A stretch of 64,000 nt of DNA from Escherichia phage P1 (AF234173.1), one strand, 5' to 3'; shown: positions 47,728 to 51,431, counted from the first letter of the stretch. The notes: generated by a model from the sequence alone, not told the origin. Program-made: numbers and translations.

Positions 47728-47744
47728 AAAATTATTAGTGCAAT
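47728..47744 (-). promoter_or_regulatory. C1 operator-like site
   Basis: AAAATTATTAGTGCAAT, about 15/17 to the reverse-complement consensus, in a divergent intergenic region. Confidence 0.55.
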
Positions 47745-47801
47745 TTTGATTGTGAAATGTATCATTCTGCCCTTAAGTAGGTTCTTCACGAGGAAACAAA
47801 A

Positions 47802-48047
47802 TTGGCAGAACGTGTTGATGATGCAGAGCTGAGCATGAATCAGTTAGAAGCTCTCAAAGACATGGCCATCGATAACATCAGAAAGCAGGCACAGGTCGTG
47901 AGCCAGGTATTTACAGGGAAGTGTCGTTACTGCAATGAATCGATTGAATCAGGCATTTATTGTGACGCTGAATGTGCGCAATGGCACAGGGAAGAGCAGG
48001 CCGCAAAACAGCGTAAATATGGCATGCGACCGGCAGGATTTGACTGA
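47802..48047 (+). CDS. TraR/DksA-type C4 zinc-finger protein
   Basis: 81 aa with CxxC-(17)-CxxxC. Confidence 0.5.
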   Translation: MAERVDDAELSMNQLEALKDMAIDNIRKQAQVVSQVFTGKCRYCNESIESGIYCDAECAQWHREEQAAKQRKYGMRPAGFD

Positions 48048-48049
48048 TT

Positions 48050-48628
48050 ATGTTGCGCTTTACTGAGGAAGAGTTTCAGGCTTTTAGTGAGCGTCGAAAT
48101 AAGGGGCGGTCCAGGCCAAAAACCAAAAAGGATCCATTCTTATCGCTTGCGCCGGTAAAAGAAGTTTCTCCACATGCGAAGGCACTTGCAGCACTGGCAA
48201 AGAACCCAGACCTGCGCGACGGAAATTGCGAGCACTTCGAGCAGGTTTTCATTTTTGATTACTTCGAACGCAAGCACCCTGACATCTATGAGCTGTTGCA
48301 TGCAACGCCTAACGGAGGGAAACGTTCAAAAGCAACCGCCGGGAAAATGAAGGCTGAAGGGCAGAAAAAAGGTTATCCGGACATGAGTCTCGATAAAGCA
48401 TGCGGTATTTATCACGGCATGCGAATTGAGCTTAAAGAACCAAATGGTAAAGCCCCGACGAAAGAGCAGATCGCCTGGATGCGCAGGCTTAGAGAGGAAG
48501 GTTACTACGTCGTTCTTGCGTACGGTGCAGAACAAGCGATTACCGCCATCCTGGAATACATAAGTCTTAAAAAGGGTGAGGCTATTGAGCATGTATTGAA
48601 CGGCGATAAGTGGTTGTATGCTGCTTAA
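48050..48628 (+). CDS. VRR-NUC-like nuclease-fold protein
   Basis: 192 aa; ...GYPDMSL...GMRIELKEPNGKAPTKEQIAWMRRLREEGYYV... resembles VRR-NUC (PD-(D/E)xK). Confidence 0.45.
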   Translation: MLRFTEEEFQAFSERRNKGRSRPKTKKDPFLSLAPVKEVSPHAKALAALAKNPDLRDGNCEHFEQVFIFDYFERKHPDIYELLHATPNGGKRSKATAGKMKAEGQKKGYPDMSLDKACGIYHGMRIELKEPNGKAPTKEQIAWMRRLREEGYYVVLAYGAEQAITAILEYISLKKGEAIEHVLNGDKWLYAA

Positions 48629-48791
48629 AATAATAAATTAATTAGTGCATGTGCGCTCTTTGTGGTAGTGCACTTTAACATCGGGAGAATAATCGTGTCA
48701 TCCAAGGTTAATTATGAGTCGCTGGCATCGGTCATGCCGCGTAATGAACAGGAAACAGATGCTGTAGTGGACCCTGTAATCGCTGAAATGA

Positions 48792-49454
48792 ATGCTCGCC
48801 TGGAGGCTGAATTTGCAGCTGAGAATGAACATACCACCCAGGGCGACTAGGACTGTTTTTTGTGTCGGTAGCGGTCCGTCACTCACTCGTGAGGACTGTG
48901 CTGCTATAGAAAAAACTGGCTGTTCAATCATCGCGGTTAACAATTCCTGGCAGATGTTCGATGACATTTATGCCTTATACGCCGGTGATTTGTCATGGTG
49001 GAAGCAATACGGATCCACCATACCGGGAGGGAGATTCCGCAAAGTGACAGCCAACCTGGCGGCGGCGAAATCATTTTCGTTGGAGTACAGGCGATATTGT
49101 GGACCGGCGGAAGGGGTAAATAGCGGCGCGCAGGCTATCAGTCTGGCTGCTGAATCAGGGGCTGAAGTAGTGGTATTAGTCGGCTATGACTGTTCTCTGC
49201 AAAACGGCCTTCATTGGCATGGCGCGCACCCTCAAGCACTACGGAATCCAACGCAGGTGTCTATTTCAAAATGGCAACAGCAGTTCCTGGATACCCGCAA
49301 AAAACACGCAGATTTACATATTTTGAATGCAAGTAGGAGCAGTGCAATTCAATGTTTCCCAAGAATAAATTTAGAGGCAGTGATCGCGTTATTATCGTCG
49401 GCAGTGGCCCAAGCGCCGCAAACTTTGTTGCGCCGCGCGGAGTGCCGATTATAG
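48792..49454 (+). CDS. MptE/DUF115-like protein, paralogue 1
   Basis: VGSGPSL...IIAVNN motif; start and end uncertain, 3' end overlaps the next gene. Confidence 0.4.
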   Translation: MLAWRLNLQLRMNIPPRATRTVFCVGSGPSLTREDCAAIEKTGCSIIAVNNSWQMFDDIYALYAGDLSWWKQYGSTIPGGRFRKVTANLAAAKSFSLEYRRYCGPAEGVNSGAQAISLAAESGAEVVVLVGYDCSLQNGLHWHGAHPQALRNPTQVSISKWQQQFLDTRKKHADLHILNASRSSAIQCFPRINLEAVIALLSSAVAQAPQTLLRRAECRL

Positions 49455-49978
49455 CGGTCAATGGGGCCATCGACTGGCTTAACCGCGCTTCTTATTTTTT
49501 CACCCTTGATCCATCCCCAGACAATATGCGGCGCGTTGGTCGTGGCCGCCGTCGCCGTGGTGTTTGTTATTGCATGGCACTACCCGATGTTAAAGAACGT
49601 GAAGTCAGAGATGGCGTTCTGTGCTTCCGTCGTGTGGCTGAACGCGGCATGGAGCCAAAAAATACGAATTCTCCCGAGTGGTGGGCGTGGCGCTGGTCCG
49701 CACATTTCGGCCTTTGCGAAGATGAGAATGAAATTGCCAGCGGCAATAGTGCATATGGTGCTCTGAACCTGGCTTTCCATATCGGATTCAAACATGTAGC
49801 TCTGGTGGGCGTTGACGCTACGCAAGAACTACGCGTTCACTCCGGCGGCACGCCAAAAAATCTAAGTCACCTGCCTTTGTTATTCCAGTCTGCGCGTGAA
49901 CAGATTGACGTTGTTTCATGCGGGAAAATGGGAGGTATTCCGCAGATGACTCTTAAAGAATGGCTGAAGAATACATGA
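49352..49978 (+). CDS. MptE/DUF115-like protein, paralogue 2
   Basis: IVGSGPSA...IIAVNG motif; paralogous to the preceding gene. Confidence 0.4.
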
Positions 49979-50652
49979 TAGCACCCACAATTTATCACCG
50001 TATCGACGGTACCAAATACAGGAATGTCTGGGTTGTTGGTGATCTGCATGGTTGCTACACCAGACTGATGTCCGAACTCCATCGTGTGGATTTTGACCCG
50101 GCGCAGGATTTACTGATATCGGTCGGCGACCTTATCGATCGCGGTACTGAAAATGTCGAATGTCTGGAACTATTGCAGATGCCCTGGTTCAGGGCAGTGA
50201 TGGGGAACCATGAGCGGTTGATGCTCGATGCGTTAAGTCCTGATGGCAACGTGAATAACTGGCTAATGAATGGCGGACAATGGTTCTTCATGCTGGACAC
50301 TGATCAGGAAATATTAGCCAGGGCGCTGGTGGAGCTGGTAAAGCGTCTGCCCTATATCATTGAGTTGAACACCGGGCAAGAAACTATCGTTATAGCCCAT
50401 GCCGACTATCCGGATAATGAATACCAATTCGGTAAGGAGGTGCCGCTTTTCAACGTTGTCTGGGCGCGCGAGCGTATCAGTGATTCGATGGATGATATTG
50501 GTGGCGAAATTTCGGGCGCAGATCGTTTTATCTTTGGTCACACTCCGGTGAAAAGCCCGAAGACATTCTGGAATCAGCAGTATATCGACACTGGTGCCGT
50601 ATTTTGCGGAAACCTGACATTGATGAAAGTGAAAGGTGATGGTGCAGCATGA
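49960..50652 (+). CDS. ppp: Ser/Thr protein phosphatase (lambda-PPase family)
   Basis: GDLHG, GDLIDRG and GNHE metallophosphatase motifs. Confidence 0.85.
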
Positions 50653-51350
50653 AGATTGCTTTAGTTCTTCGCTCTGGTGGTGACTATAACGCTTCCGATG
50701 TGCAGTGGCTGGTTAATCAACTGCCAAAAGACTATGAAATTATTTGCCTGACAGACCTGAAGTGTTTACATGTACCTGGCGTCAAAGTTATCCCATTGAT
50801 CAACCAGTGGCAAAAGTGCCGTGGCTGGTGGGCGAAAATCGAGTTGTTCCGACCGGATATAACCGATGATCTGTTCTATCTGGATTTGGACACGGTTATT
50901 GCCGGTGATATACGCCCAATCCTTGAGAATCCACCAACCAGCTTCACCATGCTTAGGGATTTTTACCATCCACAATATCGTGGTAGCGGTGCCCTGTGGA
51001 TACCAAATAGTGTTAAAGCGCATATCTGGAGTTCATTCTGGCAAGATCCGGAAGGTTGGATTTCTCGTTGTGTCACTACTGAGTGCTGGGGTGACCAGGG
51101 GTTCTTACGAAAGGTTATGGGCGATGATACACCAGCATTTCAGGATCTGTATCCAGGATGGTTTGTAAGTTACAAGGCCGATGTTGTGGAACCTGGTTCA
51201 AAATATGCGAGCGCGCGTTACTCCAGGGGGAATGGGGCATTACCAAAAGACTGCCGAATAATCTTTTTCCACGGCAAACCGCGACCTCGCGAAGTGTCAG
51301 AGGATTGGCTTCCCCTTATCAGCTCATTTTTTGAGCGAGAATCAGAATAA
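50649..51350 (+). CDS. putative nucleotide-sugar transferase-like protein
   Basis: 233 aa with a DxD-like LDLDTV motif. Confidence 0.35.
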
Positions 51351-51351
51351 T

Positions 51352-51368
51352 ATTGCTCTAATAATTCC
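51352..51368 (+). promoter_or_regulatory. C1 operator-like site
   Basis: ATTGCTCTAATAATTCC. Confidence 0.5.
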
Positions 51369-51376
51369 ATATTTTT

Positions 51377-51406
51377 AAAACGTGATGTACACTCATCACG
51401 TTTTTT
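51377..51406. terminator. bidirectional hairpin terminator
   Basis: AAAACGTGATGTACACTCATCACGTTTTTT. Confidence 0.55.
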
Positions 51407-51417
51407 ATTAGAGCAAT
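51401..51417 (-). promoter_or_regulatory. C1 operator-like site, inverted
   Basis: TTTTTTATTAGAGCAAT. Confidence 0.5.
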
Positions 51418-51431
51418 CTACAAGGTGCACT

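Follow-up and report, generated by a model that had tools for sequence, protein, structure and literature searches.

A recurrent PmgO-PmgP-PmgQ gene cassette of bacteriophage P1 and its candidate role in late protein glycosylation

The pmgL-pmgQ stretch of bacteriophage P1 lies within the 64-kb window of DNA analysed here, which is 100% identical to the P1 genome (AF234172 / NC_005856; the P1 record coordinate minus 30,800 gives the window coordinate). Its "putative morphogenetic" genes have been without function for 20 years, though P1 is among the most used phages in genetics. We found that three of them, pmgO (48792..49454), pmgP (49352..49978) and pmgQ (50649..51350), all on the plus strand, recur as the first, second and third members of a gene cassette. 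PmgO is a putative transferase of about 200 amino acids of the Maf/MptE/GT42-like (DUF115) kind, PmgP is its distant paralogue, and PmgQ is predicted to be a glycosyltransferase. In the explanation that we favor, for which confidence and doubt are about balanced, the accessory genes of the pmgL-pmgQ stretch form a mosaic spread over two units, both repressed by C1 and expressed late, and only pmgO, pmgP and pmgQ belong together. We see about an even chance that these three genes form a late-expressed cassette for the glycosylation of protein, probably virion protein, maybe using the CMP-Kdo (cytidine monophosphate-3-deoxy-D-manno-oct-2-ulosonic acid) of the host.

About 40 loci had PmgO, PmgP and PmgQ together, both in phages of Gram-negative bacteria that are unrelated to each other and in chromosomal islands. 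A first scan of viral contigs gave only near-identical P1 copies, and the scan was repeated with a distant lead sequence. Of 26 viral loci that do not belong to the close P1 group, 25 had PmgP followed by PmgQ, the sole remaining locus being cut by a contig edge, and 21 had PmgO. When bacterial genomes dereplicated by species were scanned, the complete trio or some of its members turned up in Enterobacteriaceae, Zhongshania, Microbulbifer, one member of the Methylophilaceae, Commensalibacter, Brevundimonas, Nitratireductor and the flavobacterium Sinomicrobium; the genomes with the trio span the Gamma-, Beta- and Alphaproteobacteria and a Flavobacterium. All named hosts of the homologues, a biased sample, are Gram-negative. 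In a lambdoid prophage of Citrobacter rodentium, the three homologues stand in the same order between the lysis genes and terminase. In a phage with an SU10/P22-type portal, PmgO and PmgP are naturally fused into a single chain of 376 amino acids (P0051; L003 10001-11131), and the fusion gene is directly followed by a PmgQ homologue. The PmgQ homologue and a 192-amino-acid Nucleotid_trans-like protein that come after P0051 in L003 all lie, with the fusion gene, just 3' of lysis genes. The slot between PmgP and PmgQ holds in other phages a class I or FkbM-type methyltransferase or an extra GT-A-like protein; the FkbM-type enzyme was found in this slot of L104, with related proteins in L125, L130 and L133.

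The conserved order, the co-occurrence, the codon overlaps and the fusion would be very hard to explain without a functional link, and we take PmgO, PmgP and PmgQ to be linked in function. The initial annotation of this DNA, made from the sequence alone, had proposed an uncharacterised modification pathway around the ppp phosphatase gene. A conserved transferase-like module of PmgO, PmgP and PmgQ survives from that proposal, while Ppp, PmgL, PmgM and Pap fall outside it. In the literature, we found no paper on the PmgO-PmgP-PmgQ cassette or its fusion, and no experimental work on phage DUF115 proteins. The widespread cassette tied to phage head genes and immunoglobulin (Ig)-like adhesins appears to be new, as do the natural PmgO-PmgP fusion, the exclusion of Ppp, PmgL, PmgM and Pap, and the hypothesis of virion glycosylation from CMP-Kdo.

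The genomic contexts of the cassette place it among virion genes, in most cases with the capsid gene on one side and a head-tail adaptor gene on the other, and often in the company of sugar-type methyltransferases or additional transferases. In HK97-type phages of diverse kinds, the gene order is terminase, portal, protease, major capsid protein, PmgO, PmgP, (a methyltransferase or transferase), PmgQ, head-tail adaptor and tail genes. The module lies 3' of the capsid gene in L097, L113, L117, L125, L128 and L130, whose capsid proteins mostly share only 36-40% mutual identity, and in L097, L100, L121 and L130 the very next gene after the module is that of the head-tail adaptor. A head-completion protein (PF05521, in an open reading frame of 427 amino acids) is encoded among the interleaved PmgO, PmgP and PmgQ genes of L125 (5721-7004), and a gp6-like head-tail connector (PF05135) lies inside or against the module in L131 (6405-6989). 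Stop and start codons overlap with those of essential late genes (terminase and PmgO in L098, PmgQ and adaptor in L097). Transferase genes embedded among virion structural genes are thus found in these relatives. Across the annotated neighbourhoods, the neighbours were phage head, lysis or packaging genes, methyltransferases, other transferases and Big_1 adhesins; no waa or other lipopolysaccharide (LPS)-core gene lay beside the module, and no flagellin or CMP-nonulosonic-acid biosynthesis gene was among the annotated neighbours.

Outside phages, the homologues of Pseudescherichia and Serratia islands stand amid a 1166-amino-acid inverse autotransporter (IAT_beta, with seven Big_1 repeats) and other Big_1 proteins. 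These islands (L091 1345-11338, likewise L092-L095; L004 10001-17785) also encode an RCC1-repeat protein and a lipoxygenase. From their gene content, they are possibly adhesin-glycosylation loci. The AIDA-I heptosyltransferase Aah is a soluble transferase that takes a nucleotide sugar of the LPS pathway and decorates a surface autotransporter adhesin in the cytoplasm. The Big_1 islands parallel it in that transferase genes flank an inverse autotransporter, while the enzyme family and the sugar differ. An orthologous island was found in Serratia plymuthica (L004 590-6404) and Buttiauxella (L102 4721-10501), with the same genes kept at 68-77% protein identity. Both copies share a phage lysozyme, PmgP, PmgQ, a LysR regulator and a homologue of the P1 protein Dbn; the Serratia plymuthica copy adds a holin and the Buttiauxella copy a DUF2514 protein. 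This island looks like a maintained, domesticated prophage remnant.

PmgO (220 amino acids) and PmgP (208 amino acids) have been described in the initial annotation as two tandem paralogues with a GSGPS...IAVN motif, and this was confirmed. The GSGPS motif occupies residues 26-30 of PmgO and 17-21 of PmgP, and the IAVN motif residues 47-50 and 34-37. BLASTP aligned only this N-terminal segment (14/36 identical, E 0.003). When family profiles built from deep homologue searches were compared by hhalign, they aligned over 163 columns (probability 98%, E 1.9e-13), so the two proteins are true, old paralogues. PmgP has an insertion of about 35 residues relative to PmgO. Conserved histidines, H141 and H143 in PmgO and H173 in PmgP, are candidates for a catalytic base.

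The AlphaFold2 models of both proteins were confident (mean predicted local distance difference test score, pLDDT, of 88.8 for PmgO and 95.4 for PmgP). The best Foldseek match of both was the central domain of the Maf flagellin glycosyltransferase (probability 1.00, template modeling score 0.54-0.55), followed by MptE, a pterin pyrophosphokinase of archaea, the GT42 sialyltransferases of Campylobacter, SteA, thiamin pyrophosphokinases and sialyltransferases of mammals. The ranking was the same for PmgP as for PmgO, with probabilities for PmgP of 1.00 for Maf, 0.99 for MptE HPPK and 0.63-0.77 for Cst-I/CstII. The Rossmann-like alpha/beta domain of PmgO and PmgP can be superimposed on the Maf central domain and on MptE HPPK. 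Neither the sequences nor the family profiles gave a significant match to PDB sequences (E 0.6-1.1 for the Cst enzymes of GT42), and the link of the modelled PmgO and PmgP to Maf and GT42 is structural only. The earlier label "MptE/DUF115-like" is right at the level of the fold; in Pfam PF01973, PmgO (23.4 bits) and PmgP (20.9 bits) both score under the gathering cut-off of 34.6, compared with 44.6 bits for the P0051 fusion, which passes, and 29.6 bits for E. coli WaaZ. RefSeq already labels PmgO "alpha-2,3-sialyltransferase" and PmgQ "glycosyltransferase". With isoelectric points of 9.3 (PmgO) and 9.5 (PmgP), the pair is as basic as WaaZ, a membrane-associated LPS enzyme; charge was dropped as a means to tell membrane or LPS enzymes from soluble ones, being ambiguous.

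The annotated start of pmgO (ATG 48792) has no ribosome-binding site. A TTG codon at 48813 is preceded by GGAGG (48802-48806) at a spacing of 6 nucleotides, the N-termini of relatives begin near there, and residues 1-14 of the PmgO model have pLDDT <50. Because of these three features, the true start is probably TTG 48813, which would leave an overlap of 38 nucleotides rather than 59 between pmgO and the preceding gene pmgN.

PmgQ (233 amino acids) has D79-x-D81 invariant across 65 family sequences and a C-terminal F-H-G-K-P-R-P motif. The single sequence had no Pfam match at E <= 0.1. The family profile matched GT77 and GT8 structures in the PDB (E 3e-8 to 1e-5 over profile positions 32-201), with the GT77 Skp1 alpha-galactosyltransferase 6mw5 at E 3.1e-8 and glycogenin (GT8) at E 2.5e-6, and the DxD and C-terminal H-G-x-P-R-P motifs were in register. 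PmgQ also matches PHROG 1962 "glycosyltransferase". The profile thus identifies PmgQ as a predicted retaining GT-A glycosyltransferase of the GT8/GT77 kind, which bears out the earlier description of a DxD-containing transferase-like protein.

A further, weak candidate for a glycosyltransferase, the GT-B (GT1/GT4-like) protein Dbn, is encoded by dbn (41859..42857, plus strand), the gene after ban that the initial annotation had drawn into the same pathway. Dbn matches Pfam Glycos_transf_1 at E 1.5e-5, slightly below the cut-off, and had no relative by sequence in the PDB. In the Serratia and Buttiauxella islands, Dbn homologues (38-39% identity) lie within about 4 kb of PmgP and PmgQ. Since these islands are orthologous (70-78% nucleotide identity), the linkage there counts as one extra lineage. 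In addition, a 56% homologue lies about 3.3 kb beyond pmgS, roughly 5 kb beyond pmgQ, in the distant P1-like locus L129. The proposed tie of Dbn to the pathway holds as far as one non-P1 lineage and L129, and the linkage is weak; Dbn is a possible accessory of the cassette.

The initial annotation had also noted that the two paralogues overlap by about 100 nucleotides. The overlap is real and measures exactly 103 nucleotides (49352..49454, plus strand), which encode residues 187-220 of PmgO in frame 0 and residues 1-34 of PmgP in frame -1. A 181-nucleotide segment spanning it is gap-free in 82 independent P1-like loci, which rules out a sequencing error. In every locus where pmgO and pmgP are neighbours, the reading frame of pmgP is -1 with respect to that of pmgO, and the overlap varies from 103 nucleotides in P1 to 94 in L005, 49 in L089, 13 in L097, and 7 in both L098 and L103; in L003 (P0051) the genes are fused. 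The pmgP start codon sits within the codons of the conserved Q-C-F-P motif of PmgO, and PmgP residues 1-12 are a variable leader co-encoded with the last helix of PmgO. Past residue ~203, the PmgO tail, which is the G-S-G-P-S region of pmgP read in another frame, is unconserved and 0 to 20 residues long among relatives. The long overlap of P1 therefore reflects drift of the PmgO stop codon downstream into pmgP. The conserved -1-frame arrangement is suited to translational coupling.

Two slippery-type heptamers in the pmgO frame lie within the overlap, T-TTC-CCA (49355) and A-AAT-TTA (49367), where 0.14 would be expected by chance, and a -1 slip at either would fuse PmgO to PmgP as in P0051. 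The better of the two, A-AAT-TTA, was found in P1 and in none of its relatives, the predicted folding of the RNA downstream of the heptamers does not stand out from that of shuffled sequence (z = -1.07), pmgP starts at an ATG of its own with AGGAG 12 nucleotides upstream, and the PmgO and PmgP genes lie far apart in L091-L095. For these reasons, a programmed -1 frameshift yielding a PmgO-PmgP fusion seems unlikely.

Maf is a protein O-glycosyltransferase, the structures matched by PmgQ act on proteins or protein-linked glycans, and the cassette stands among virion structural genes or genes for surface proteins; these three observations point to the glycosylation of protein, with a virion target in phages. 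When expressed in E. coli, Maf enzymes attach Kdo to Ser/Thr by O-glycosylation, drawing on the host CMP-Kdo pool (PMC11339370; bioRxiv 10.1101/2020.06.03.131540), and phage-encoded transferases are reported to glycosylate mycobacteriophage capsids (Freeman 2023, as cited in PMC11256854). From the folds, paralogy, fusion and gene contexts, we infer a donor, an acceptor and a role as follows. Late in infection, the PmgO/PmgP proteins, probably acting as a pair, would move a CMP-activated ulosonic acid in the cytoplasm to Ser/Thr of a virion protein or to a growing glycan; in E. coli K-12, CMP-Kdo would be the sole such donor, and the Gram-negative hosts named so far, biased as that sample is, fit it. 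With a UDP-sugar as donor, PmgQ would next attach a hexose in alpha linkage, and the glycan may be lengthened by Dbn or by other accessory enzymes. The head, or some other part of the virion, would thereby gain a coat of glycan that is dispensable for plaque formation in the laboratory.

The initial annotation had named deletions without a change in virion composition or host range as evidence against a modification pathway, and published data answer this in part. Neither single deletions of the region genes nor CRISPRi knockdowns of all of them except pmgN caused a plaquing or antirestriction defect, and none of the region proteins is in the P1 virion proteome (PMC9024508; PMC10695390). Such laboratory dispensability fits a dispensable decoration and fits any accessory role equally well.

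Several points weigh against glycosylation of the virion. No glycan was reported in the P1 virion proteome, which was not aimed at glycans (PMC9024508). PmgO and PmgP have no counterpart of the domains at the N- and C-terminus of Maf, to which acceptor handling is ascribed. The pair shares its fold with pyrophosphokinases (MptE, thiamin pyrophosphokinase) and SteA, so that its transferase chemistry is putative, and its isoelectric points resemble that of WaaZ. The donor sugar is a guess, and the proposed PmgO/PmgP heterodimer draws on one fusion and the conserved adjacency only. The P1 cassette itself is not adjacent to the capsid gene, and the position between head genes in other phages could be just a site where accessory insertions are tolerated.

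The main rival, which we consider unlikely, is that the cassette remodels the LPS-core receptor during lytic growth, with PmgO and PmgP acting like WaaZ and PmgQ like the GT8 outer-core glucosyltransferases, so that superinfection is blocked or progeny are spared loss on cell debris. The LPS core is the site to which P1 adsorbs, enzymes of the LPS core occur in GT8, and the named hosts of the homologues are all Gram-negative. E. coli WaaZ, a Kdo III transferase (PMC8151780), is itself MptE-like in Pfam (E 6.9e-7) and about as basic as PmgO and PmgP, and the P0051 fusion has a faint precomputed match to PF27901 "WaaZ_KDO_III". However, hhalign matches of the pair to WaaZ were weak (E 1.4e-3 and 6.4e-3, probabilities 17% and 6%), and membership of PmgO and PmgP in the WaaZ family was rejected on this weak similarity and on the lack of waa genes in the annotated neighbourhoods. 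PmgQ also matched WaaO weakly (probability 6%), its PDB matches at E <= 10 were glycogenin, the Skp1 galactosyltransferase and other proteins labelled GT8, with no LPS or lipooligosaccharide (LOS) glycosyltransferase named among them, and the annotated loci have no waa or LPS genes beside the module. The coupling to late genes would also leave little time to replace the LPS already in the outer membrane, and repression in lysogens rules out lysogenic conversion. A reading that we regard as less probable still denies that PmgO and PmgP are glycosyltransferases and places them with MptE, thiamin pyrophosphokinase and SteA as enzymes of a pyrophosphokinase or nucleotide-binding type, which would activate or modify a small molecule, cofactor or precursor then used by PmgQ and the methyltransferases. 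The shared fold allows for this, but the G-x-G-P-S, A-V-N and N-S-G...G-x-D motifs resemble those by which GT42 enzymes bind CMP-sugars, and the constant partners are glycosyltransferases and sugar-type methyltransferases, not genes of a cofactor pathway.

Two further readings have very little going for them as accounts of the trio. That the stretch consists of unrelated accessory genes, neighbours by chance in P1, is true of much of the region, where PmgL, PmgM, PmgN, Ppp and Pap are found beside the cassette in P1-like phages alone, the distant ones among these phages lack Ppp, and all genes are individually dispensable. For the trio, the co-occurrence at about 40 loci, the conserved order, the codon overlaps and the fusion largely refute it, and we hold the absence of any shared function to be highly improbable. 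Equally improbable is a nucleic-acid target, for example phage DNA or tRNA, in place of protein or LPS. Phage glycosyltransferases classically glucosylate DNA, and some of the neighbouring methyltransferases bear the PHROG labels "DNA methyltransferase" or "tRNA methyltransferase". P1 DNA, on the other hand, is a standard substrate for restriction and cloning with no sugar modification known to us, and no hydroxymethylase or base-modifying gene accompanies the module. Moreover, protein is the substrate of Maf, the nearest relative in structure, secreted adhesins of the Ig-like kind are the neighbours of the genes in the chromosomal islands, and the FkbM-type methyltransferases of the slot between PmgP and PmgQ are typical of glycan pathways.

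Compared with known systems, PmgO and PmgP are a paralogous pair of bare cores of about 200 amino acids, while the Maf proteins of Magnetospirillum (PDB 5mu5) and Clostridium botulinum have about 600 amino acids and further domains at both termini; of the 632 Maf residues, 163 are covered by the alignment, and sequence similarity is undetectable. The linkage to flagellin and CMP-nonulosonic-acid biosynthesis genes that would be expected of a Maf transferase was not seen in the annotated neighbourhoods. To the GT42 enzymes Cst-I and CstII, there is no significant sequence match (E 0.6-1.1), with Foldseek probabilities of 0.63-0.77 for PmgP, and to WaaZ the hhalign probabilities are 6-17%. Cst-I, CstII and WaaZ act on LOS or LPS and are encoded in LOS or waa clusters, whereas the phage genes lie near head or adhesin genes. 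PmgQ resembles GT8 and GT77 enzymes such as glycogenin and the Dictyostelium Skp1 enzyme (6mw5) in its profile, the DxD and the C-terminal H...G..(K/R)P; those enzymes act on proteins or protein-linked glycans, while PmgQ is shorter and on its own matches no Pfam family. Among functional models, we think that mycobacteriophage virion glycosylation, an analogy, fits best. In Che8 and related phages, the capsid-modifying transferases are reportedly dispensable for plaques (Freeman 2023, as cited in PMC11256854). That system differs in its actinobacterial hosts, in its enzyme families and in the position of its genes, which in the phage of PMC11256854 are close to the end of the genome, and the P1 system is a predicted one.

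We consider it doubtful, though somewhat less so than remodelling of the LPS core, that a head protein or some other virion protein of P1, and of many other phages with Gram-negative hosts, bears a coat of O-glycan containing Kdo, for which PmgO and PmgP hijack the CMP-Kdo of the host and which PmgQ extends. If this were true, virion glycosylation would extend from mycobacteriophages to phages of Gram-negative bacteria, and P1 would have the first such system in a classical coliphage. PmgO and PmgP would represent a new family of protein Kdo-glycosylation enzymes, reused by bacteria on Ig-like adhesins, and a compact protein-glycosylating enzyme pair possibly useful for glyco-engineering in E. 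coli. Glycan coats that affect antibody recognition would also be relevant to phage therapy. Because P1 deletion mutants already exist, the hypothesis can be tested directly. In the corrected picture, Ppp, PmgL, PmgM and Pap have separate accessory functions, and the 103-nucleotide overlap is a conserved arrangement of a gene pair.

The genes outside the cassette were assigned one by one. PmgL, encoded by pmgL (47802..48047, plus strand), is a small, putative treble-clef, DksA-like zinc-finger protein. It matches PHROG 54 "DksA-like zinc-finger" (E 1.6e-12); the earlier label was "TraR/DksA zinc finger". The spacing of its cysteines (C41-x2-C44-x9-C54-x3-C58) is atypical for TraR/DksA, and Pfam did not confirm that family, giving no zf-dskA_traR match and just a weak VATC treble-clef match. 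PmgM (pmgM, 48050..48628, plus strand) is a stand-alone VRR-NUC nuclease, as had been suggested from its fold: in its match to the VRR-NUC structure 4qbl (E 3.5e-17), the motifs G-Y-P-D and R-I-E-x-K fall in register, its active-site motif comprises PD at residues 110-111 and E127-x-K129, and it matches PHROG 5702 "Holliday junction resolvase" (E 5e-27), with Pfam VRR_NUC at 21.2 bits slightly under the 23.8 cut-off. PmgL and PmgM are DNA or transcription accessory proteins, found with the trio only in P1-like contexts. The pmgN gene (48695..48850, plus strand), whose open reading frame overlaps the start of pmgO, encodes an acidic product of 51 amino acids (PHROG 2350, unknown function) that is kept only in close P1 relatives. 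CRISPRi against pmgN lowers plating to 1.4e-2, yet its deletion is viable, a contradiction that the authors themselves flagged (PMC10695390). The CRISPRi effect is not one of polarity, because the downstream genes pmgO to pmgQ all score as non-essential. A search with the PADLOC library of defence systems matched 0 of 9 proteins.

Ppp, encoded by ppp (49960..50652, plus strand), is a lambda-type Ser/Thr (metallo)phosphatase, as first annotated, with full-length homology to the lambda phosphatase 1g5b (E 5.9e-95 over residues 11-229) and a Pfam Metallophos domain (59.4 bits). It is missing from every non-P1 module and also from the distant P1-like loci L119, L124, L129, L132 and L134. These five phage-plasmids keep the order pmgL-pmgM-pmgO-pmgP-pmgQ-pmgR-pmgS with pmgP directly abutting pmgQ, and ppp is therefore an insertion between pmgP and pmgQ specific to the close P1 lineage. 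Pap (pap, 52987..53493) has a polynucleotide-kinase-type HAD 3'-phosphatase domain (Pfam HAD_PNKP, E 5e-12, and a Pnkp1 match). The idea that this HAD phosphatase serves the same pathway was not upheld, as Pap is of the PNKP type rather than of a sugar pathway, and P1-like phages are the only setting in which it was linked to the module; PmgL, PmgM, PmgN and Pap accompany PmgO, PmgP and PmgQ solely in P1-like elements. Further matches of Ppp are NCBIfam TIGR04075 (E 8e-11), which stands for the metallophosphoesterase module in the Pnkp of bacteria, and the metallophosphoesterase chain 4j6o. Ppp and Pap, both restricted to P1-like phages, together resemble the end-healing half of an RNA-repair system, a likeness that suggests by analogy a possible role against defences of the anticodon-nuclease type.

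At the level of transcription, the cassette of P1 is annotated downstream of a late promoter and upstream of pmgR and pmgS. The promoter, LPpmgL (47695..47713, plus strand), is known from the GenBank annotation of AF234172 (record 78495-78513) only. At the left edge of the region lies the annotated C1 operator O26 (Op82; 47728..47744, minus strand), with 2 mismatches to the C1 consensus, and at the right edge, together with the promoter PpmgR, lie OpmgRa (51352..51368, plus strand) and OpmgRb (51401..51417, minus strand), both annotated and consensus-like. A search allowing 3 mismatches found 14 C1 consensus-like sites in the window, where 0.31 would be expected by chance. The annotated internal operator Oppp (Op83; 48635..48651, minus strand) has 4 mismatches and for that reason escaped this search. 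Because of Oppp, there are two C1-controlled units, pmgL-pmgM and pmgN-pmgQ, and not one operon. Hence the flanking operators of the initial annotation are real, and its single operon, in which Oppp had been overlooked, is split in two. No convincing terminator was found from pmgL to pmgS, so that read-through from LPpmgL to pmgS is plausible. The first one comes 3' of pmgS, where 52934-52962 forms a strong intrinsic-terminator-like hairpin with an 11-bp stem and a T run, and a terminator-like hairpin on the minus strand, with a 15-bp stem, lies 3' of pap at 53537-53569.

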